From: Yuukianura sp. NJ FZ-2021
Lineage: Eukaryota
Assembly: GCA_046563655.1 (NCBI GenBank)
Contig: CM102287.1
Span: forward strand, 3,410,001 to 3,474,000
Direction: 5' to 3'
Length of the DNA stretch: 64,000 nt
The position numbers were made by a program, and so were the translations under genes. The notes beneath the pieces were generated by a model. It ran no database searches, had not been told where the DNA came from, and was given only the letters and a program-made list of their open reading frames with translations. Below, piece after piece: positions 5,994 through 59,263 of the stretch (position 1 is its first letter; each line of letters begins with the position of its first letter).

Positions 5994-7196
5994 CTAACTT
6001 ATCGTTAGTTTGAACGGTTCCATCTGCGTGTTTAGGAAACCAAATTCCCGTAATACGAAATACTGCAACAAAAAATTAAAATAATGAAAGTTAAAGCTTG
6101 TTCAAATTTTTTCAAAACGCTGAATTTTTTTTTAAACGAACACTTCGAATCTTACCTTTCCAGCGACGACAAGATTGGCTTCTACATTAAATGGTCGAAG
6201 TCCAGCCGTTTCCAATTTTTCCCACCACTCTCCCACATTGGTCAGCCAATCACGTTTCCTGAATTTCCCAATTTTCCCTTTCTCAAGATGGAGTTCAATC
6301 TGGAGTTGCGCAAAGGGAAGTTTTTCTGGAAAATCGTTCAAGATCGTCGGCATTGCTTCCCACTCAGCCCCTTCTACGTCCATTTTGAGCACATCGAGCT
6401 TAGTGACCTTGAGATCCTCCATGATAGATTTGAGTGTGCTGTAGTTGCCGACGTTTGTGCCTGAAATTCCGAGGAAGTGGAAGAATGCTCTGCCAGGGTA
6501 CTTCCGGACAACATCAGGCACGCTGTGAATCGTTGGGTCAAACATGTGAACGATACAGCTTTGGGTTCTGTGTAGAAATTCGTCTTCAAAGGAAGTGTCA
6601 CCGCCGACTCCAAAGGAAAACACGGTACAGTCTGGCTTTGTTTCGAGCAGATCAAACCCGCAAATCCATTTCCCGCCGTCACCAACTCTGCCAATTCGTT
6701 CTTTGGTAAAGGGACAGTCGAAACTCGGGTAGAAAAAGTCCCAGATTGTTTGTCGTTTTCGACGGTCGATATCGCGGGACAGTCGAACCTTGTGGATAAC
6801 CAGTTTCCGACGTTCCTGAGATCGAATCCAGTTGGCTTCAGATGCTTTCAGTTGACTTTCAACGCTGTACACGTATGGTTCAGTGTACAAGTGACGTGGG
6901 CCGTTCTTTTCGTTCTTCAGACGTTCCGGAACAGTTGGACGTTGAATACAGTCGAAATCGGAATCAGATTCCTTCAGCTGGAATTCCCCCTTGCACGCTC
7001 CTATGTAAACGTGAAGTACTAATGTTAATTAATGAATGTAAAGTAATGATACATGTATGTAAATGCAAAACTGATTACCTGGGTTAACGCCCGTGTTACC
7101 GTCTGAAGTTCCACACGTGAAAATGAGCAGTGTAACGACACTGGCCAGCACTCGAACGTTTCTCCGTGACGTGTACACCGACGAGGTGACCCCCAT
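5994..7196 (-). CDS. METTL24-like (Methyltransf_22/FkbM-like) methyltransferase, copy 1; exons 7196-7079, ~7000-6156, ~6063-5994
   Basis: CPFTKERIGRVGDGGKWICG, CTVFSFGV...SFE, VHMFDP, LDVLKMDVEGAEW and QLQIELH motifs; N-terminal hydrophobic anchor exon. Confidence 0.88.
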
Positions 7197-7974
7197 TTCC
7201 TGGCCTTAATCAATCATTGTTTATTCAATTACTTTTAAATTTTCATCGGAAATGTTTGATTTGAAGTCTTACCTTGTTGAGCAAAGGAATCGCAAATCGG
7301 TTTGAGAACGTTTTTTCTGTTCAAAATCGGTGATGGAATAAACGGACAAGACGTCGCCTCTATATGTACCGTTCACTTCTACCTTCTGGATTACACAGCA
7401 GAACTATAATTAACATTGTTAATTCACTTGAATTAATAACTTAATTAGTGGACATGTGCGGTGGACGTGGAACAGACCTTGGAAGTTGGGGCTGGAACTT
7501 CTCCAACTCTTAGAAAAGATGAATGAACTTAAGTCCCCACAGCGCAAGCAATGCAAAATAAAATACTGACTAATTTTTGGACACAGAAGCGGCAGACGTT
7601 CATGTCAATTTGTACTTGCGGTCCATCAGCAAGATTGATGATTATGAAATGGTAAGTGCAAGCTCATACAGGCGTTTAAGCACTGTTTTAACTTAAACTG
7701 TGTTTAAGCATCCATCAACACTAGCTCAACTGCACAATTCAAAATTCAAGATGACGATGACGTGAATTTTTAGAAAAACTACTTAATTTGCTGGTTGATT
7801 TATAATCTCTGAAGTAAAATTTTGAAAATTACGGAAAATTTATTACGAGCTAAACAATTACAGTGAGGATTTGAGCGAGTTCGATAAACCACAAAAATCA
7901 AAACCTCATTTATTATTTTTTTTTAAAGAAAATAATTAATTAGTTAATGCGAACAGTTAATGGAGATTACATAC

Positions 7975-9273
7975 CTAACTTAATTTAAACGGTGCCATCT
8001 GAGTGTTTAGAAAACCAAATTCCCGGAATATGAAATACTGCAAGAGAAAAAAACAACTGAAAGTTTGTGCAACTTGTTATTTCTCAAAACGTTTTATGAG
8101 TTTTATGAAACGAAACTTCGAATCTTACCAGTCCAGCGTTGAGAAGATTAGCTTCTTCAATAAATGGTCGAAGTCCAGCCGTTTCCAATTTTTCCCACCA
8201 CTCTCCTACTTTTGTCAGCCAATCAGATTTGTTGAATTTCCCAAGATGGACTTCAATCTGGAGTTGCGCAAAGGGAAGTTTTTCTGGAAAATCGTTTAGG
8301 ATCGCCGGCATTGCTTCCCACTCAGCCCCTTCTACGTCCATTTTGAGTACATCGAGCTTTGTGACCTTGAGATCCTCCATGATAGATTTGAGTGTGCTGT
8401 AGTTGCCGACGTTTGTGCCTGAAATTCCAAGGAAGTGGAAGAATGCTCTGCCGGGATACTTCTGGACGACATCAGGCACCCTGCGAATCGTTGGGTCAAA
8501 CATGTGAACGATACAGCTTTGGGTTCTGCTTAGAAATTCGTCTTCAAAGGAAGTGTCGCCGCTGACTCCGAAGGAAAACACGGTACAGTCGGGCTTTGTT
8601 TCGAGCAAATCAAACCCGCAAATCCATTTCCCGCCGTCACCAACTCTGCCAATCCGTTCTTTGGTAAAAGGACAGTCGAAACTCGGGTAGAAAAAGTCCC
8701 AGATGATTTGTAGTTGAGGGCGGTCGACACCGTCGGTCAATTGAACGTCCTCGATGGCCAGTTTCCGACGTTCCTGAGATCGAATCCAGTTGGCTTCAGA
8801 TGCTTTCAGTTGACTTTCAACGCTGTACACGTACGGTTGAGTAGCCAAGTCACGACGGGGTCCGTTGTTGTCGTTCTTCGGACGTTCCGGAACGGTTGAC
8901 CGTTGAATCCAGTTGAAATCGGTTTCGGAATTGGAATTGGATTCCTTCAGCTGAAACTCCCCACTGTACACGGCTGTGACAAAAAAATACGAATTTTAGA
9001 ATATTCATAACCTTTATGATTAGCATGCCGAAGAAGATGTAAATCGTTAACAGCGGTCTTACAAACACAATTTTATGCAAGTTACGTAAAGCAATGCGTT
9101 TACTGTAAATGTAATGCACAAAACTAATTACCTGGTGTAACACCCGTGTTACCATCAGAAAAATATCTGAAGTTAAACGAAGAAGTTGCCCACATAAAAA
9201 TGAGCAGTGTACAGACACTGGCCAGCAACAGAACGTTTTTCCGTGACGTGTAGACCGGCGAGGGAGTCCCCAT
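7975..9273 (-). CDS. METTL24-like methyltransferase, copy 2 (recent tandem duplicate of copy 1); 3 coding exons
   Basis: Core near-identical to copy 1; flanks and 3' intron also duplicated; anchor VLLLASVCTLLIFMWA. Confidence 0.88.
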
Positions 9274-9991
9274 TTCCTGACCCCAATCAATTACTAATTA
9301 CTTAAGCTTAATTACTTTGTCAATTACACTTTTACACGAAATTGGTGCGATTTGAAGTCAAACGTTACTGAATTCAAAAGAAGAAGCACAGTTGAACGTT
9401 GTTGTTCCTTCCCAATCGTCAGCAAATAAACAACCAGACATCGGCAATTTATAGACCGTTCACTTCTACTGTTCCACGAGCACCAATTGTTTAAATTTAA
9501 GCTGCTTTGTGCATGATTACACAGAACTGTAATTATATTATTGTTAATTAAGTTTCCGTGAAACTTAATTAATGGAAAGGTGGAACAGACCTTGGAAGTT
9601 GGATCTAGAATGGAACTGCGGTTGTGTTGTGGTCAACTCTCATAGAACAATAGATAAATTTAGGTCTCCAAGCATAAACAAACATAGGCATAATAGTTCC
9701 CTCCGGGTAAGAAACGCGCTATAAAAAGCCTTATTATTTCCTAGAAACACTTTATCTAAAAAAAAAGGAATTAAAAAAGAGACTAACAAGGTACTTTTAC
9801 CACTTCCTTTTCTTAAGTTCCAATAAGTTGTAAGTGTATGGTCTTTTTTATCAATGATTTACTAAAACCAGTTTTTATAACAAATTTTTATCAAAGTTTT
9901 ATGAAAAACTGAAGAATTTACTAATTCAGAACAGGGTTAAATTTAATTCAGAACAAGGTTATGAAGGATCAATCAGCGATTTTTTAGAAAA

Positions 9992-11047
9992 TTATTTTAA
10001 CTTGAATGGATCCACTTTGATATTTAAAAAAGCGAGCTCACGAAACATGAAAGGCGTCCACAACAAATTCGGTTCTTCGAAAAATTGGCGTAAACCGGCA
10101 AGTTCTAAATTCCGGTACCACGAACCCAAAATCCGCAACCATTCCGTAGAATTTTGGAACTTGTCAAGGTGTACTTCGACTTGGAGTTGGGCAAACGGGA
10201 GTTTTTGAGGAAAATCTTGTACGATTCGGCGCATTGCGTTCCATTCTGCCCCTTCGACATCCATTTTTAGTACATCCAGTTCGGTCACTTCCAGTTCCGC
10301 CATGATGGCTTCTAAAGTGCCGAACTCCGGTTCGTCTTCCGTACCGGATCCGATTCCTTGAAAGTGGAAAAAAGCTCTGTCGGGGTATCGCTCGACTAAC
10401 GACGGTACATTGGTGATTGTCGGGTCAAACATGTGCAGAACGCAGTGTTTCGTTCTGCGCAGAAACTCTTCTTCAAATGACGTTTCATCTTGTATGCCAA
10501 AAGAGAATACGGTGCACTTGACCTTTGACACTAACAGGTCAAATCCACAAATCCATTTCCCGCCATCACCGACTCTTCCTATACGCTCTTTGGTGTAGGG
10601 ACAATCGAAATTGGGATAGAAAAAATCCCAGATCCGTGTTTCTGTACGCTCAAGGTCATCAGTGATGTGGATACGCTTTAGGACTGCTTTCCGACGGACG
10701 TGGGATCGCCTCCAGTTGGCTTCAGCTTTTTTTAATCGCTTTTTTACTTCTGCGTCTGTGCAATTAGTTGGGGGAGGAGTTACCGAACTGGAATCTTTTG
10801 GCGTTCCGATCTGGGTCCCTGAAAGGACTGGGCCTTTGAGTTCTAAAGAAAATCAGGCGTTTCGACGGTTTTACATTCGGAAAAATAGTGTTTCGACATT
10901 TTTACCTGGCGGTTCCAGAACTTTGTAGGCGAATGACGGAACGGTATGTAGTAGATTGAATGACGGCGTCCAGAAATACCAAGCGAACAATAGTATCGAA
11001 AAGCCTACAAATGCAAATGTCGACGCTTTCCACGCAGAGTGCCTCAT
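9992..11047 (-). CDS. METTL24-like methyltransferase, copy 3; exons 11047-10906, 10842-9992
   Basis: Type II anchor (AFVGFSILLFAWYF), phase-1 intron at the same position as paralogs, GDGGKWICG and KMDVEGAEW motifs. Confidence 0.88.
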
Positions 11048-11426
11048 AGTTGGACTTTTCAGAAAAATTCGTTCCAAAAAAAATTGGAATTGAGAAATTT
11101 TACTGCAAAGTTAATGAAATCACAAAAAATTCGAAAAAGTCGTTTTTATTTTGAATTTTTTGAGACTTTTCAACTTTAGTTTTTTACTCTCAACATGACA
11201 AGCTTTGTTAAATCGTTCAAAAACCTCACATTAAAATTCACTTTTTTGCAAAATTTATAACTCTGAATTAGTAATAGTCACGTCCAAAACGAAAGGGCAA
11301 GTACACCCAAACATGTTAATGAATATTTCACAACACAACATTAGTTTATTATTATTATTTTACATTAATTATTTTATATTAATTATTCTACAATAATTAA
11401 TTCAAACTTTAGCATCTTTTTTTCTC

Positions 11427-12430
11427 TTAATCTTCTAGTTTGAACGGATGTCTTTTGACATTCAAAAAACCAAGTTCACGATACATGAACCGTTCATACA
11501 ACAAGTTCGGTTCTTGAACAAATTGACGCAGTCCAGCGTTTTCTAGATTTTCAAAAAACGAATTCAACGTTCGGAACCAATCGGCTGGGTTCGGAAAACT
11601 GTCCAAGTGGACTTCGACTTGGAGCTGCGCAAACGGAAGTTTTTCTGGGAAATCTTCCAGTGTTCTGCGCATCCCTTCCCACTCAGCCCCCTCTACATCC
11701 ATTTTAAGCACATCGACACTTTTCAAATCCAGTTCCGCCATGATGGATTTCAAAGTTTTGAATTTCCCGCCATCTTCAGCCCCGATTCCAAACGGATAAA
11801 AAACTGCCCGTCCCGGGTAACGTTCAACGATACTTGGCTGCGTAGTCACCGTTGGATCAAACATATGCACTGTACAGTTTTCCGTTCTGCGCAGAATCTC
11901 CTCTTCAAATGAAGTGTCATCACGAACTCCGAATGAAAACACAGTACATTTGACCTTGGCCACTAAAAGTCCAAATCCACAAATCCATTTGCCGCCATCT
12001 CCCACTCTCCCGATTCGTTCTTTGGTATAAGGACAGTCGAAACTTGGCGGGAAAAAATCCCAAATGATCCGGGCATTAGCGTTTCCCTCGCCATCGGGTA
12101 TCTGGTTAGTGTTCAGGACTGCTTGACGTCGGTCGTGGGATCGAATCCAGTTGGCTTCGGCAGTTCGAAGATGCGTTTTCAAGTCAAAACTTTGCCCAGA
12201 ATCGACAAGATTCTCATCTACTTCTGAAGATTCCCAATCTTTTCAAAAATATATTTTTGAAAAATTAAAACAAAAAAGTTGAAAATTCGAAACTTGACGG
12301 AGTTACAACTAATTGGCTTACGGTGCTTTCTTTTACGTTGTTGAACACTCGACATGTAGGAGACTAACACAAAGCTGAATAGAAACGCCCAGATGAACAC
12401 GAGAGTTTTTTTCAAAAATAACTTACTCAT
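11427..12430 (-). CDS. METTL24-like methyltransferase, copy 4; exons 12430-12322, ~12238-11427
   Basis: Anchor TLVFIWAFLFSFVLVSY; same catalytic motifs; in-frame splice. Confidence 0.88.
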
Positions 12431-46548: not shown

Positions 46549-47935
46549 TTTGTTCTAGATCCAATCCAATCTTCCAGAAGAATCCAGAACACCGAACCTA
46601 CCACAACAAATGAAATCTCAAATTCAAGGCAAAAGTTAGTGGTTTCCATGCGTCATTCAACCTGAAATGTAATAAAACTTACCCAAAAACTATCGAGATG
46701 AAGCGATCAATCAACCAGATCCTGGAGGAGTCGAAATCTAAAGAATATGAAAATTTTCTCTCCTTGTCTTCCGGTTTACTTTTTAACGCAGTGTCGTCCG
46801 TGTCTTCCTCCTTCAACTTTCAACTGAAGACTGCTGGGTTAAAAATAAGTACAGGAACAATGCAGTGACCTTTTTTAAGAACAACCATAAAATCAAACAA
46901 GGAAACGAAACTCTCCCTCCTCGTTGCCTCGCACTTACTTTTCCAATTGCCTTTCTTTTCTTTTTCTTTGATTGATTTACCGCTGTCCCTCTCAGTGCCT
47001 ACCTGCATACGGCAAAGTTTTTCCCGCTTTTTGCATGAATTTAGCGCCGTTCAGTTTTATCTTACCTGTACGATTGACTAATCCACAGAATACGCAGATT
47101 CTTTAGCTTTCTGAATTTGTATATAAATAACAATTTTTTAAAATGTTTTATCTATTCATTACTTTGTTACATAGTTATGTGATTTGATTTTTACAGTTTT
47201 ATCATCGGTTTTGCTTAGAGTTTTCAGAAATTAACTTTACAATAAAATTTTTACAAAAAACGTAAAGTGTTGAAGATGCAAATTACCAATGCATGGCGAA
47301 TGTGTTGGAAATCTAATCATAAATAGCAAAAATCTATTAGCAATTGTGGAACAGTTTTGCAAATGATTTTTTCTTTGTGTGTCAATGACCTCCATGACCT
47401 CTTTTGGTCATAGCTTCTGGAAGACGGCTTAAGGGCTAAGCCTCATTGACACAGACTTTCTCCCGTTCATCCACAAGTCCCCGAATTCCACCGGATGCAG
47501 ATGTATTGAACTCTTTTTTTGTGTTCATTTCAACCGACGACGACTTGACTTCCTTCCGTTTTTCCCTCTCTATCTTCATCCTCGTCCTCATTTCTAAACA
47601 TTATAGCCTACCGAATGCGATGCTTTCAACACAAAAACTGCAGGGAAAGACAGAAGTCGAAAACATACGAGATCTCTCGCATTAATTTCAAAATTTCAGC
47701 TAAATTCTTAATTTGAAAATTATTAAAGAGTACGAACTTAAGGAAACTTTGAACCTCCTCTTTCAGTGAATTAGGTAGGTACATGGAAATTAATCTAACA
47801 TTTTGAGAAAATTGTGAAAAATTTGACATTATGCATTTTTTTGTCTTTGCAGTTTTTCTGGGATTCTGAGGTTTGGGCATGCCGGAATTTCGTGACCTGT
47901 GACCTGGAGGCGTCTTAACAGCGAAGCATGGACGG

Positions 47936-49390
47936 ATGGAAGATCGTCGCTTGATGTCCAACGATGAACGAGCTAATTGCCACCTTCCACCTATCGTCAA
48001 TGCTACAAAAACGTCATCAAATTTTTACTTGGACGAAGATCTCTTTGACAGAGTTTTAGGAATTCCAGCGAAAGTAGAGATTCCGCAGCGATACGTTGCA
48101 GATCCAGAGGAGTTGACTCCAGAAGAGAAACTGTGGAGGTCAAAGAAGGCTGAAGCCATTTGTCGCTTGTTGGCCAAGGCTGGTGGCCCTACTCAATCGC
48201 TGCTCGTTCCCAAAACGTCACCGAATCATACTTCGGCAGGACTCGGAAAACAACCGAGCAGTAGAAGCAGCAGTGGATTTTACAGTGGGGGGACATTGAC
48301 CTTGGGTGCTGGTGCAGGCGGGAGTCGACAGTCGCCCCAAAGTTTACCTGTGAGTCCACTGTTTCAACGGCAGCAAACCAGTCTAAGAAGAACGACACCT
48401 TCTGATTGGTCAATTAATTCACCACGGTTTCAGTAAGTTCAATTAATTAGTTAATTCTAAAACTGAACTTCATTGAAAAGTTTAAGCATTTAACAAGGCG
48501 AATCCCATTTTAACCGTCGCAACGAACAAACTTTAGTGTTAACAAAAAGGCGCGAAATTCAAAAATATTATTTTCTTCCGGCGTTGATTTTATTTTGAAA
48601 AAAAAAAAACCTAACAAAGACCTAACCATTCTGTACTCAATGAGTTTCGGTTTTAATTAGTTGTTCAATTAATTGCAATTTAATTACTTTGTGTTATCAC
48701 TGTTCGAGCTTCTGAATTGCTGAGTGTGAGGTATCGATTTGCTAATTATCTCTAATCAATTTCTCAATTTGAATTTTTGAGAATCAAAACAGCTGAGCGG
48801 ATTATGTTTCTGGATTTTAATCACATTTTTCTTTAAAAAAATTTCAAGGTTAATTAAGTATATGATTGATTATCGACTTATACTTTTTTTTTGTTTTTAG
48901 ATACTCAAATCGTCGCGGAAGTATTCGACGTGGCAGTGTCCACTATCTGGAGGAGCAGTACTTTGAAGACGCTCACGACGGCATAAGGTTAAGAGAAGAA
49001 TCAATCGCTGCTGAAGAAGCAAGACGAAGAACAGGTCAAGGTCATTACAGGCCTTCCTTGTTACAAAGTGCAAGTTGTGAACCTTTTGTAACTGTCGCTC
49101 ATAATACCCGCGGTGAGTCTCCATCAGTTCGTCCTTCATCTTCGGACTCCCAGAGATCACATTCATCAACTCTGTCCAGCTCAACATCTTCGTCTGACCG
49201 AGATCGGGAAGATATTTTTCACCTTCATCATCTCCTGGCCAAAGAAGTGAGTCAACGGAGTCAAGCAATTGCTCGTCGATCGCTAAATCCTTCACCGAAG
49301 AAACAACCTCCACTTTACTACGATCCACCTTCGCCTCCCTTATCCCCCCGACTGCCAATTACTCAACAACGAGAAAACTACTTAACCTGA
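47936..49390 (+). CDS. Orphan, largely low-complexity Ser/Arg/Pro-rich protein (~328 aa); exons 47936-48432, 48901-49390
   Basis: Two long stop-free, GC-richer ORFs joined in frame by a strong GTAAGT...TTTTTAG intron (CA|A = Gln); no recognised domain. Confidence 0.7.
48549..48563. promoter_or_regulatory. E2F/CDE-CHR (DREAM-type) composite GGCGCGAAATTCAAA; candidate internal promoter
   Basis: Exact composite inside intron 48433-48900; a related TTTGAATTTCGCGC is at 58985-58998. Confidence 0.45.
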
Positions 49391-49797
49391 ATGCATCCTG
49401 ACCTCTCACGTCACTTGCATTCCGACGAGTGTAACGCTCTCATTGACGCTCTGCGACAGTGTCACGAACAGGTACGAAAAAAACACCAAAATTTAGAATT
49501 TCCGAACTTATTTTGTAAATTCTTTCAAAAAACATTTTTCAGAACAAGTTCACGCGCATGTTTGGTGCCTGCAATGAGTTCGACACTGCTATGGTCCGTT
49601 GTCTGAAAGCAGAGGTAACTAAAAACACAACTTTTCAAACACTAATCGGTGACTTCTGATGGTTTTTCTTCGTATTTTGATTGTTTTGCTTCTCTTAGCG
49701 CAAGAAACGTCAACGTGCCAATAACGAAAAAGCTGCAGCGAGACACAAAGAGGCTGCAGACCGTACAAAACAAGCCAAAGTTGACGAGACTAAATAA
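49391..49797 (+). CDS. CMC2: COX assembly mitochondrial protein 2 homolog (twin CX9C); exons 49391-49471, 49543-49614, 49699-49797
   Basis: MHPDLSRHLHSDECNALIDALRQCH...FGACNEFDTAMVRCLKAER; twin CX9C and the characteristic MHPDLS.HLH start. Confidence 0.93.
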
Positions 49798-49938
49798 CTC
49801 AACTAATTAGAAACTAACGAAACGCTTTCAGAGTCAACTTTAATAGTCAACAGTCCTTCATAGTCCACTAAAACCTGGAGCTTCAACTTAGGAATTAGTT
49901 TGTCGAACCATCCTTGAACGCGGTGATTGAAATTTATA

Positions 49939-50731
49939 ATGGATGCTGCTGCTGCCTACGTAGAAGCAGCTGATGCCCTTCCTGGATTAAAAGAAGTGTG
50001 TCTTGATCGCCGTCCATTTGTAGATCGCTATTATACCAAAAAATACTTCACCGGTACTACCGGCAGTACAACTTCAGAAGGAAGGACTACTGGCAGCACA
50101 ACTTCAGAAGCAGAAGAAGGAGACTACATGCTGCTGGTTCACTCTAACAAACTTTCAGTACTAACTCTCGCACCGTCTCACCCCATAATCAAGCAAAATC
50201 TAACCGTCACCTCAATTAACTTTCAGGTAAGTTGTAAGTTGCAACTTGCAACTTATGAGTTACTAATTAATTAAAAAGTTAATCTTCATCTTAATTAATC
50301 GACTTTTCTGTTCTGTTTCAGATTTCTAAGAATGTTAACAGATTAGAAAATGTGGCCAAGGGAAAAGGGAAGAAGGGAGCTCAGTTTTTGCAACCATCTG
50401 CTCCAATTTGCACTGTAAGACCAAAGTTTTTCAAAATTTTAAATTTTATGAAAACTAAAACATTGTAGAAACTTCTGACCGTGACTTCTTTTTGAATTTG
50501 TAGATTGAAACGTCTTGCGGAAGGTCATTTGTGGTGAGAGCCGGAATAGTTGCCAAGTTACTGGAAGTGAACGACCGAATTGTACTGGAGCCGGAACTGC
50601 TTAAGAAAGCGGGCACTGGATACTTGGCCATTTTCTCTTGTCGTGCCGCTGATTTTGAGAAGCAAATGAAATCGCTGATGTCGGAAGAAGAGTATTTAGA
50701 GACGCTCAAGAATAGAAGCCAACTACTTTGA
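49939..50731 (+). CDS. ABITRAM: ABITRAM/FAM206A/Simiate-like protein; exons 49939-50226, 50322-50414, 50504-50731
   Basis: FVDRYYTKKY, LVHSNKLSVLTLAPSHP, NRLENVAKGKGKKGAQFL, KLLEVNDRIV.EPELL....GYLAI; AATAAA at ~50795. Confidence 0.88.
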
Positions 50732-52460
50732 CTTTTACAAGACTATGACCTGTTGTCCTTCAATTAACTAACTGTAGTCAAGCAATACAAATTCTAATAA
50801 AATATAATACATTAATTGAAATTAAACTAATTACTTTAATTGTCCTTAAAAAGTTAGTTTCATATCGTTAAGAAAGGCACGGACGCCGCGCCGATAAGCC
50901 ATATTTCTCGTCTGCCATTTCTGCACATGCGTCGTTTTTGAATGGATGAAAATCGTTCTTTGTTTTTGTTTACATTTTTTATCAGTTGCTCTTTAGTCAG
51001 CCAACTGACCTGTCATCTGTTTGGATTCTGGAAGAGGTGAGTTAATCGATTAATTGTAAGTTTCAGTTAGTTAATTAATTTTTATTCTAACTTAACGTTA
51101 AGTCCGCAGTTAAGTCCTTTCGGACTCCAAAAATTCCAAAGCAGTAAACTGCATTGGGAGGTTTGTCACTTTAGGGTGCCAGCATCAATGCCCTCACTTA
51201 CAGTTCATCGGGTCATTGCTGTCTCCATGGACAAGGTCGGAAGAGGATCCCTAAGTTTAGTACTTCACACTCTGCAAGGTCAAAATCATACGAACGTCCA
51301 TGCATAGATAACTGGACTTATCTCTGCTTTAGTACCTTCAATACGGTACTTTATCCATGATTACTTCTAATTAGTAGCCAGAGGTGCCGATTTTAAACTA
51401 TTTTCTAGATTAATTGATCTTCATAGCTGGAAAATTACGATTTCGATTGAAGTAATTGAACAATAAGGAAGAATTCTTCATCTTGATCATTTGTTCTTAC
51501 AGATCTTCCAGAAGAACACCAGATACCGGTATCCCTGTAGCTTAAGGAGGATCACCTCTTCTCTTCAGGTATTAATTAACAAGTGTTTTAAGACTAATTC
51601 ATTGACAGTAATTGCTAAATCTGTCTAGGAATTACGGTAAGAGGAAGCACGAGCTTTACTTGGATCCTTGGATCTCAAGATAACTAAAACTGGACTGAAC
51701 TAGTTCGGGGGAAGGGAGGCTGTCATCGTCATCAAGGGCAGTACTTAAGTACCCCGCAGCACATCTTGAAGAGTCTTTTACGAATTGGAATTGTCCTTAC
51801 GAATACCTGTTGGTATTTGCTCAAAGTGTTCGTGTTGCTCCTTCCGTAAGTTTTATGCATGAACACGGATATGGTTGTCCTTTGGTGGTGGTGGGCTGGG
51901 CATGAGTAGTCTCTTTTGATCTCAATTTCTCTGCGTATGTTTTTTGTATTTTCAATTTCAGTTTCCTGAGTGCGATCGAGAGAGTTGAGCTGAGCTAATC
52001 TCGTCATCATCATATGCTCTTGTGGTCTTCTGTCAGTCAGCTTAACTTCAATTTGGTTTTACAAATACAATTGTGAAATCTTCCTCATCTGTACGAGTGT
52101 CACTGTAAGAAGAACATCTTAAGTTTTAGTTTTCCAATCACCTTGCCATTACTCTAGATTGGAGGGGTATCAGTTTTTAAGTGAGTGACTCATCTTAATT
52201 GACTCCTGCTGTGATACAGGAGACATCCAAAAAGTTCTGGTGCTCTTCAGAACATTCACGCCCACAAGTTGAAATTAAACCACTGGATATCGGATATTCT
52301 CTTTTGAAGTGCTGAACTGAGGAGTGACGTTAATCGATTGGCGACAGTGCCAAGTGATACTCAAGATACCTCAGAGTACTGCCAGTACTTCGTCAGAATA
52401 CTTCCAGTACTTCGTCAGCATCGATAAAGTGAAGGGTGCCCTTAACAATGGGAGTTAAAG

Positions 52461-57113: not shown

Positions 57114-57382
57114 CTTGTTTCGTGATTACTAATTGCATTCGTAGAAGGTTGAGTGAAGGTCTTTTGTCGATTCCTCTCTGACGTACAGGAAATTTGTTTT
57201 CTCATGGAAAACGTTTTCAGTCAACTAAGAGTACAGCGACTAGTCAGACAGCATCTGGAAGGAAAAATGATAAAGAATTATTAAAATTAATCGATTAATT
57301 ACATAGATTGAGTGAAGCTAGTACTAACCTATGTATTCCAGTTACAACAATTGCTTGGCCGATTGATGAACGGTTGCTTTTC

Positions 57383-58911
57383 TACGGAAGCTTAAAAGGG
57401 TCAAATCACGTCCCACTTCCCAGTGCTCGGTACTCGATACCCAGTGCGCGGTTCCCAGTACTCGGTGCGCGGTTCCCAGTACTCGCTACCCGCTTCCCAG
57501 TACTCAGTGCGCGGTTCCCAGTACCCGGTACCCGCTTCCCAGTACTCAGTGCGCGGTTCCCAGTACTCGGTACCCGCTTCCCAGTACTCAGTGCGCGGTT
57601 CCCAGTTGTGCTGCGCGGTTCCCAGTTGTCGCTGCGCGGTTCCCAGTTGTGCTGCGCGGTTCCCAGTACTCGATTCCCACTTCTCAGTTCCCAGTGCGCG
57701 GTTTCCGGGTGGTCCTTTTTCTTCAAAAATCGTTATCTCCTTTTTGTTGCCCTTTGGAGCTCGAGCCTTCCTTTCTATCTGCAAAAATGGCAATTATGTA
57801 AATGCAGTACCGTGAGGATCCCAGTGTAGAAGACCCATGGCTGTTATTTATTACCAAAATGAGCGTAACTAAAAAATTGCACTAATTTCAAAAAAATACC
57901 GTACTGCATCGAGAACATTGACAATTAAAATAACATGCGGATACTTAGGTTCAAAAACTGAACAAAAAATCAACAATTAAAAAAAATATTTGAGTTGACG
58001 TTCTTTCTCCTTGCAAGTGAATTTTGAACTATTGAATGATTTGATTATTATACCTATTTTTATCTTTTACACTTACAGTTCTGTTGTGTTAATAAATATT
58101 TGAGTGTTCACTAAAAAATTGAATGATCTAACTATTGATTTTTTTTATTATTGATTTTTTGTTCAGTTTTTGATTTTGTTTCACTCCTTGAAACATTTTG
58201 AAGTAATGAATTTTTTTAAGTATTAAATTTTTATGGAAGTATTGCCATTTTATTTTAATTGTTAATTTGTTTGATGCGTTACGGTATTTTTCTGAAATTA
58301 GTGCAATTTTTTTAATTTTGCTCATTTTGGTAATAAATAACAGCCATACGTCTTCTACACTGGGATCCTCACGGTACTGCATTTACATAATTGCCATTTT
58401 TGCAGATAGAAAGGAAGGCTCGAGCTCCAAAGGGCAACAAAAAGGAGATAACGATTTTTGAAGAAAAAGGACCACCCGGAAACCGCGCACTGGGAACTGA
58501 GAAGTGGGAATCGAGTACTGGGAACCGCGCAGCACAACTGGGAACCGCGCAGCGACAACTGGGAACCGCGCAGCACAACTGGGAACCGCGCAGCGACAAC
58601 TGGGAACCGCGCAGCACAACTGGGAACCGCGCACTGAGTACTGGGAAGCGGGTACCGAGTACTGGGAAGCGAGTACCGAGTACTGGGAACCGGGAATCGA
58701 GTACTGGGAACCGCGCACCGGGTACTGGGAACCGCGCACCGGGTACTGGGAACCGCGCACCGGGTACTGGGAACCGCGCACCGGGTACCGGGAACCGCGC
58801 ACCGAGTACTGGGAACCGGGCAGCACAACTGGGAACCGCGCAGTTAAACTCCAGTGTATTGCTTATGGAGGAGGTAATCGGGAAGCGAGTTGGCCCTTTT
58901 ACGCTTCCGTA
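57383..58911. mobile_element. Non-autonomous foldback-type DNA transposon; long inverted arms containing 20-21-bp tandem repeats; 6-bp TSD CTTTTC
   Basis: Termini TACGGAAGCTTAAAAGGGTCAA and TTGGCCCTTTTACGCTTCCGTA are inverted; CTTTTC at 57377-57382 and 58912-58917; arms ~57383-57987 and ~58139-58911; unit CCCAGTACTCGGTGCGCGGTT; no transposase ORF. Confidence 0.9.
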
Positions 58912-59263
58912 CTTTTCCTTTGTCTTTGTGTTTTTCCTTTTTTTTCGTGTTCTTTTTGTTGACAGTTTTTTTCACAAAAGTTGATTTGAATTTCGCGCTG
59001 AATTTCTGGAGGGAGTCTTCGCAAAAAAAAAAAGTAAACACATGGCAGAGTGTTTTACTTGTAATCCTAATCAGCTGTTTTCTGTCTTAATTTTATACTA
59101 ATTACCCTGCTTAATTAATTAATGAATTAATTAATTTGAGATTCATTGAGAGACTAATCACTGATACATCAAGGTAACAATAATATAAATCAAAATAGTA
59201 TCTGGAGATTTCATAGAACGTTTTTGCCCTGAAGTAATTGTTGTTTTGTTTATGATTCACAGA

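Follow-up and report, generated by a model that had tools for sequence, protein, structure and literature searches.

A probable conserved polycistronic locus with CMC2-like and ABITRAM-like cistrons in Yuukianura sp. NJ FZ-2021

Polycistronic loci have been catalogued in FlyBase, where the part of the survey drawn on here counts 159 dicistronic pairs, 7 tricistronic loci and 2 tetracistronic loci (PMC4528330). According to the same part, gaps between cistrons span -34 to 319 nucleotides (nt) where polycistronic transcripts only are known, small proteins occur in excess, and the long messenger RNA (mRNA) is often accompanied by monocistronic isoforms, produced from downstream promoters or by alternative splices. 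At the Drosophila loci stoned (stnA/stnB) and Snapin, the first cistron is AUG-deficient, and ribosomes arrive at the second by leaky scanning (Wall et al. 2005, as related in PMC11892635); the section concerned also describes a non-optimal context of the first start and a mature dicistronic mRNA. For the bicistronic mRNAs of green algae, the sections cited report that AUGs are under-represented upstream of open reading frame (ORF) 2, that the start of the first ORF is weak and that leaky scanning is used; the pairs have persisted across great evolutionary distances, and their inter-ORF gaps are generally short (PMC7896298, PMC11892635). In operons resolved by spliced-leader (SL) trans-splicing, gaps are given as about 100 nt in C. 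elegans and 1 to 60 nt in tunicates, in the passage of PMC7986045 used here. We analyze below a 2.9-kilobase (kb) stretch of the genome of Yuukianura sp. NJ FZ-2021, at 47.9 to 50.8 kb of the window, which is most likely one conserved polycistronic locus that encodes three unrelated proteins head to tail: a first cistron, a CMC2-like protein and an ABITRAM-like protein. In the library searched, no paper contained both current gene names, and our literature search, judged from listings and abstracts, found no paper on the linkage of CMC2 and ABITRAM, nor on the trio.

The window is the whole 64,000-nt stretch of DNA that was analyzed (GenBank assembly GCA_046563655.1, contig CM102287.1, positions 3,410,001 to 3,474,000), and coordinates count from its first letter. 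The three genes lie on the same strand, separated by 0 nt (cistron 1 to CMC2) and 141 nt (CMC2 to ABITRAM), as follows.

47928 to 48002, plus strand: 5'-terminal group of five ATGs
47936 to 48432, plus strand: exon 1 of cistron 1, with the donor GT at 48433
48433 to 48900, plus strand: intron of cistron 1, 468 nt, containing the ATGs at 48640, 48804 and 48862 and a candidate donor at 48731
48901 to 49390, plus strand: exon 2 of cistron 1, with its terminal TGA at 49388 to 49390
48003 to 49390, plus strand: ATG-free stretch of cistron 1, 920 nt once the intron is removed
49391 to 49797, plus strand: cistron 2, CMC2-like, 83 codons, exons 49391 to 49471, 49543 to 49614 and 49699 to 49797
49939 to 50731, plus strand: cistron 3, ABITRAM-like, 202 codons, exons 49939 to 50226, 50322 to 50414 and 50504 to 50731
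50796 to 50801, plus strand: AATAAA, the sole one in 47800 to 51000, presumed to be the common poly(A) signal

An earlier sequence-only reading of this DNA had described ABITRAM as a third cistron of one transcription unit, with CMC2 and an upstream gene before it. Direct reading, together with mapping of ATGs and poly(A) hexamers, recovered each of the features it had listed at its coordinates. Thus, 141 nt separate the CMC2 stop (TAA at 49795 to 49797) from the ABITRAM ATG at 49939; the spacer holds neither AATAAA nor ATG, and ATTAAA is absent from it too; CTAAC (49814 to 49818) and a TTTCAG ending at 49831 are both present; and the first AATAAA downstream of ABITRAM, at 50796, lies 65 nt past the stop TGA (50729 to 50731).

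The first junction provides the strongest case. The TGA of cistron 1 directly adjoins the CMC2 ATG at 49391, so that there is no room for a terminator or a promoter between the two genes. Upstream, plus-strand ATGs occur at 47928, 47936, 47954, 47964 and 48000, and from there to 49391 in the intron only; the spliced mRNA is therefore ATG-free in every frame over 920 nt. Simulations of that length led us to expect 8.8 ATGs with the composition of the stretch itself and 13 with that of the window; sequences with none arose in 4/20000 and 0/20000 cases, respectively. Shuffling the order of the codons never removed all ATGs (0/2000), and permutation of synonymous codons did so in 22 of 2000 trials. 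The two unspliced halves of this desert, 640 nt and 529 nt, are the longest and fifth-longest plus-strand ATG-free gaps of the whole window. By analogy, the junction appears to bear the leaky-scanning signature of stoned and Snapin, and cistron 1 and CMC2, considered alone, almost certainly share a transcript.

The ATG cluster ahead of the desert is composite. Cistron 1 starts at 47936; ATG 47954 is in frame with it, and ATGs 47964 and 48000 are out of frame, in an ORF ending at 48059. ATG 47928 opens an upstream ORF (uORF) of 8 codons, whose TGA shares its A with the in-frame ATG 47954 (a TGATG overlap). Another uORF, of 7 codons, starts at 47879, and the out-of-frame ORF from 47964 has 31 codons. 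From the short ORFs at 47879, 47928 and 47964, reinitiating ribosomes could enter the AUG-free stretch. Start contexts, judged without the species' own consensus, are cggATGg at 47936 (C at -3) and agcATGg at 47928 (good); further downstream they are tgaATGc for CMC2, which is weak, and ataATGg for ABITRAM, which is strong. A strong acceptor (tttttttgtctttgcag, 9.7 bits) is found at 47852, 76 to 84 nt upstream of the ATG cluster, with a donor-like AG/GTAGGT 76 nt upstream of it; the segment from 47777 to 47852 is probably a short intron in the 5' untranslated region (UTR) of cistron 1.

Cistron 1 is predicted to encode a protein of 328 residues. The label of orphan that it had been given was not borne out, since relatives were found: 46 proteins were matched by its exon 1 in an all-against-all HMMER search. 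The closest family consists of six small proteins (P0003 to P0008, expectation value (E) 4e-30 to 1.6e-9) together with P0049, which came from a word-index search. Among the remaining 40 HMMER matches, the matching stretch is mostly C-terminal in longer proteins; residues 12 to 100 of cistron 1 match the last ~100 residues of proteins 1000 to 2964 residues long (E 9e-7 to 1e-3). Five of these long proteins were scanned for domains, and TBCA_PH was found in 5/5, PH in 2/5 and WW in 1/5. We take the combination of WW, PH and TBCA_PH to be PLEKHA5/6/7-like, a putative name drawn from the architecture and not from tool output. All seven family members (P0003 to P0008 and P0049) are free of methionine past position 7, with a count of 0 in 1244 residues; a methionine lies within the matched domain in 38/38 other matches examined, P0040 and P0044 being left out of the count because their best stretch falls outside the domain. 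The Atlas search gave no usable match for exon 1 of cistron 1, and when exon 2 was compared with the longer proteins by the word-index search, 0/1072 candidates scored.

The identities of the other two cistrons rest on several kinds of match. Against the Pfam family Cmc1 (PF08583, cut-off 22), exon 1 of CMC2 scores 25.9 bits and exon 2 falls just under, at 21.7 bits; two Cx9C motifs, C-NALIDALRQ-C and C-NEFDTAMVR-C, can be read directly. The start MHPDLS presumably designates CMC2 rather than CMC1. The gene model of ABITRAM is colinear with the database relatives P0001 and P0002, and no Pfam family covers the ABITRAM-like protein. The Atlas clusters nearest P0001 are named Abitram, with a score of 0.96 and Arthropoda as the commonest phylum, which we treat as a lead only. 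The ABITRAM-like protein is weakly similar to GCV_H (E 0.0037), and its relative P0001 to PDB entry 2ka7 (E 0.0012). A sequence search of the PDB returned no ABITRAM or CMC2 structure, with weak H-protein matches only for P0001 and noise only for CMC2. We retain the name ABITRAM because of the Atlas cluster names, of this weak similarity and of the relation of Simiate/FAM206A (ABITRAM) to the glycine cleavage H protein, described in the relevant part of PMC3859600.

Gene order in related loci extends the case to the third cistron. A scan of metagenome contigs with an ABITRAM alignment gave 309 pattern matches, of which 2 were confirmed (L001 and L002), and in 2/2 confirmed loci CMC2 immediately precedes ABITRAM, both genes having the same orientation. 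Nothing was confirmed in a metagenome scan with P0001 alone (206 pattern matches), in genome contigs (74 matches) or in viral contigs (152 matches). L002 (5942 nt) carries all three genes in the order of the window, with gaps of 36 and 77 nt: the contig opens inside the frame of cistron 1, which stops at 162 to 164; CMC2 runs from 201 to the end of its stop at 645, and ABITRAM begins at 723. Its CMC2 has two introns at the positions of those in the window. Identity to the window amounts to 67% for ABITRAM exon 3 and, between the C-terminal 53 residues of cistron 1 and the frame that precedes CMC2 in L002, to 51% (E 6e-8). AATAAA occurs only downstream of ABITRAM, at 1510, and the L002 spacer and ABITRAM exon 1 contain neither AATAAA nor ATTAAA.

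L001 is more distant. Over its 1223 nt, a CMC2 ORF (221 to 475) and an ABITRAM ORF (549 to 1085), both complete, are separated by a 73-nt ATG-free gap. The CMC2 homologue scores 68.7 bits with Pfam Cmc1, and its first 26 residues are 73% identical to those of the window; the ABITRAM homologues are 39-49% identical. None of the four introns common to the window and L002 is present in L001, and the contig ends 4 nt past an AATAAA, which is how a processed dicistronic mRNA would look. The bases upstream of the CMC2 ATG are alike in L001 (205 to 232) and in the window (49375 to 49402; ACTTAAC..CCTGA-ATGCATCC), with a TGA abutting the ATG in both, and in L001 an open upstream frame of 72 codons leads to that TGA.

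Downstream of ABITRAM, the window and L002 have different neighbors. From their translations, read by eye and without a search, we take that of L002 to be glycogen-synthase-like, on the opposite strand, and that of the window to be CLC-channel-like, on the plus strand. The linkage of CMC2 and ABITRAM has thus outlasted flanking genes and substantial protein divergence. The conserved gene order in L002 and L001 is the main support for ABITRAM sharing the transcription unit, and on balance it is probable that one primary transcript, with the poly(A) signal at 50796, serves all three genes. The earlier description of ABITRAM as a third cistron is thus supported as regards its linkage with CMC2 and the upstream gene; the part that assigned an acceptor role to position 49831 is unsupported, for reasons that lie in the spacer:

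49798 to 49938, plus strand: spacer between CMC2 and ABITRAM, 141 nt, without ATG, AATAAA or ATTAAA
49814 to 49831, plus strand: acceptor-like CTAAC...TTTCAG, with a chance-level score and no conservation
49986 to 49991, plus strand: ATTAAA in ABITRAM exon 1, which might act instead as the poly(A) signal of a CMC2 mRNA

Taken singly, the spacer features given in the sequence-only reading are mostly close to chance. Among 3000 first-order Markov 141-mers of window composition, 378 had no ATG, 289 contained TTTCAG (225/3000 with spacer composition) and 61 matched CTAAY..YYYYAG, a pattern defined post hoc. For the acceptor, a weight matrix was built from nine confirmed acceptors, five of the window and four of L002. 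Site 49831 scores 4.0 bits, compared with 9.8 to 17.1 bits for the training sites (-5.2 to 12.2 when each was left out in turn); at least 4.0 bits is reached at 386 plus-strand sites of the window and by 209/500 spacer shuffles. The best site of the L002 spacer scores 1.1 bits, equalled by 329/500 shuffles, and that of the L001 spacer 5.7 bits, a value attained in 61 of 500 shuffles, at a site that is unused in the L001 contig. All three spacers are ATG-free, and an alignment of the three revealed no conserved block. Given a chance-level score and no conserved counterpart in L002, the use of 49831 as an acceptor, whether by cis- or by trans-splicing, is not borne out, and CTAAC...TTTCAG is most likely a chance match rather than a dedicated acceptor. 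Nor would such an acceptor be strictly unpaired, as had been written, given same-strand donors upstream at 48433, 48731, 49472 and 49615.

These donors are what an alternative splicing in cis would draw on: 49831 would be joined to 48433, 48731, 49472 or 49615, CMC2 would be skipped, and the ABITRAM AUG would come first behind an AUG-free leader. A join of 48432 to 49832, for instance, would end cistron 1 after 13 further codons (TAA at 49869 to 49871), leaving 67 ATG-free nt up to the ABITRAM ATG, and the AUG-free part of exon 1 from 48003 to 48432 would serve both isoforms. The 4.0 bits do lie within the leave-one-out range of true acceptors, and the motif looks like the acceptor at 49542, which is weak yet real; moreover, some FlyBase monocistronic isoforms arise, in the part of PMC4528330 cited, through alternative splices that disrupt one coding region. 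Against this stand the frequency of equal scores in the window and in shuffled spacers, the lack of an L002 counterpart above 1.1 bits, the unused L001 site and the failure of the spacers to align, and we consider such splicing quite improbable.

The chance is slimmer still that the precursor of an SL operon is resolved by trans-splicing at 49831 into a monocistronic ABITRAM mRNA. A short gap, conserved gene order and the acceptor-like TTTCAG would suit it, as would the mostly arthropod origin of the Abitram clusters in Atlas, a lead only. The sequence-only reading was right that SL trans-splicing is known in some crustaceans: it occurs in copepods and amphipods, where, according to PMC7986045 and PMC4664967, operons have yet to be reported. 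An arthropod SL operon in a group (copepods, amphipods or relatives) with known SL trans-splicing but no reported operons would accordingly be a novelty, and one to which we give very little credence. The acceptor is at chance level and unconserved. Nematode-type operons have a poly(A) signal ahead of the trans-splice site, and here neither AATAAA nor ATTAAA occurs between the CMC2 stop and 49831. Rfam, at gathering thresholds, gave 0 matches in the window, SL RNA included, which counts against an SL operon with little weight, as SL genes would lie elsewhere. The abutment of cistrons 1 and 2 and the AUG desert point to translation from a polycistronic mRNA, the intron-free L001 still joins CMC2 and ABITRAM, and the strong acceptor at 47852 can be paired with a plausible donor in cis, 76 nt upstream. 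Spliced-leader trans-splicing at ABITRAM is thus unsupported.

A different alternative is that CMC2 and ABITRAM form separate, overlapping units, with ABITRAM transcription starting on its own within CMC2 exon 3 or the spacer, and with CMC2 ending at a non-canonical signal or at the ATTAAA of 49986. This last hexamer, like another at 50270 in ABITRAM intron 1, was passed over in the sequence-only reading, and the mRNA of CMC2 could end at either. Because ATTAAA 49986 is an alternative, a single common poly(A) site, as had been proposed, is not established. On the side of separate units, the genome is compact, the apparent non-coding first exon of the next gene beginning ~100-150 nt past the ABITRAM AATAAA, and the exonic sequence from 49594 to 49938 (261 nt) lacks ATG, a property required of a 5' leader. 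The segment TCAGAG at 49828 to 49833 presumably resembles an initiator element. In the fly data of PMC4528330, as far as the cited portion goes, monocistronic mRNAs exist for both genes at 45/159 dicistronic loci and for one gene at 69/159, and the 3' gene usually relies on a downstream promoter. Conversely, the spacers of 73 nt (L001) and 77 nt (L002) have hardly room for a 3' UTR, a promoter and a 5' UTR; L001 runs continuous and intron-free over CMC2 and ABITRAM; and the L002 spacer and ABITRAM exon 1 offer no AATAAA or ATTAAA. Under separate units, the gene order would have been kept only because the signals of each gene sit within its neighbor. We rate this explanation as unlikely, albeit the most serious of the alternatives.

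Under a shared primary transcript, the reading that we prefer, a single promoter upstream of 47.9 kb would drive transcription through all three cistrons, and polyadenylation would follow the AATAAA at 50796. Cistron 1 would be translated from the ATG cluster at 47928 to 48000. CMC2 would be reached by ribosomes that skip this cluster or reinitiate past its short ORFs, those bound for CMC2 then scanning 920 AUG-free nt, by the mechanism of stoned and Snapin. ABITRAM, on the same primary transcript, would be reached in one of two ways. Ribosomes could reinitiate past the short frame of CMC2, which counts 83 codons, or 40 if read from the methionine at 49591 (also present in L002), and across the spacer devoid of AUG; or a further, shorter mRNA could serve as template.

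Several points weigh against this reading. We infer co-transcription, the common poly(A) site, the 5' end and the routes of translation from the DNA itself. CMC2 is not AUG-depleted, with three internal exonic ATGs in the window (49558, 49574 and 49591) and five each in L002 and L001; the logic of leaky scanning therefore stops short of ABITRAM, which has to be reached otherwise, by reinitiation, from its own start site or by splicing. Reinitiation past 40 to 83 codons is usually inefficient. The absence of AATAAA and ATTAAA from the spacer is expected by chance (2461/3000 of the random 141-mers lack both), and the ATTAAA at 49986 offers CMC2 an end of its own. The seven Met-free relatives share common descent and cannot count as independent cases; probably they represent calls of single-exon ORFs, because they end where exon 1 of the window ends. 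The desert is not absolute in relatives, given an in-frame ATG at 57 within the 160 nt of cistron 1 on L002 and ATGs at 75 and 87 upstream of CMC2 on L001. L001, which comes from a metagenome contig collection, may be complementary DNA or the DNA of an intron-poor species. Its 5' frame was tried as a C-terminus of cistron 1, both ending in ...YLT(S)*-ATG, and was rejected (BLASTP E = 13).

Elsewhere in the window, the segment from 50900 to 51038 probably contains the first, non-coding exon of the plus-strand gene that follows, with the donor GAG/GTGAGT at 51038, and the intergenic space is very tight. The palindrome TTAATTAA is present in 23 copies, for 3.4 expected, and 0/100 shuffles reach 23; of the 23, five were placed (48850, 50267, 50291, 51071 and 51572), in introns or near splice sites. 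AATTA-type words are also seen after the CMC2 stop, in the window and in L002 alike. On the minus strand, 6132 to 12242 holds four tandem paralogues with long single ORFs (271 to 303 codons) and a common ...IWDFFYPSFDCP(F/Y)TKERIGRVGDGGKWICGF... motif, which would fit an FkbM-type methyltransferase. Two short-tandem-repeat blocks, at 57299 to 57829 and 58355 to 58984, are inverted with respect to each other, lie ~500 nt apart and are open in several frames on both strands.

If the mRNA is common to the three genes, the locus would be a clean natural case of graded translation from one animal transcript, and a whole family would have been kept Met-free so that its coding sequence doubles as the 920-nt AUG-free leader of CMC2. 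Persistence of the linkage at 39-49% ABITRAM identity, despite changed flanks, suggests co-regulation, and perhaps also that CMC2, an assembly factor of mitochondrial cytochrome oxidase, is functionally tied to ABITRAM, a poorly understood relative of the H protein so far described as a nuclear and actin-associated factor. At such loci, annotation runs the risk of merging the genes into one or of losing the small middle gene.

How, then, does the locus compare with the systems described at the outset? With the SL operons of nematodes and tunicates, as far as PMC7986045 is drawn on here, it shares a short same-strand gap; unlike them, it shows no SL, SL RNA gene, conserved acceptor or preceding poly(A) signal in what was found at the window locus. 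The green-algal bicistrons, in the cited parts of PMC7896298 and PMC11892635, resemble it in their AUG-poor upstream ORF and long-range conservation, and belong to another kingdom. The likeness to stoned and Snapin is closer, with a first cistron holding 0 ATG in 920 nt and a Met-free family; the proteins are different, however, as are the TGAATG abutment and the third cistron behind an AUG-containing CMC2, and the present case is known from sequence alone. The names Cmc2, Abitram, Cmc1 and 'COX assembly' were not found in the 12 files searched from the PMC4528330 supplement. Like the FlyBase loci described in the portion of that survey used here, the locus unites unrelated genes on the same strand, with gaps of 0 and 141 nt that lie within the fly range and a small protein (CMC2, 83 residues) among its products; it would fit, by analogy, a polycistronic locus of the kind catalogued in FlyBase, with a first junction of the stoned/Snapin subtype.

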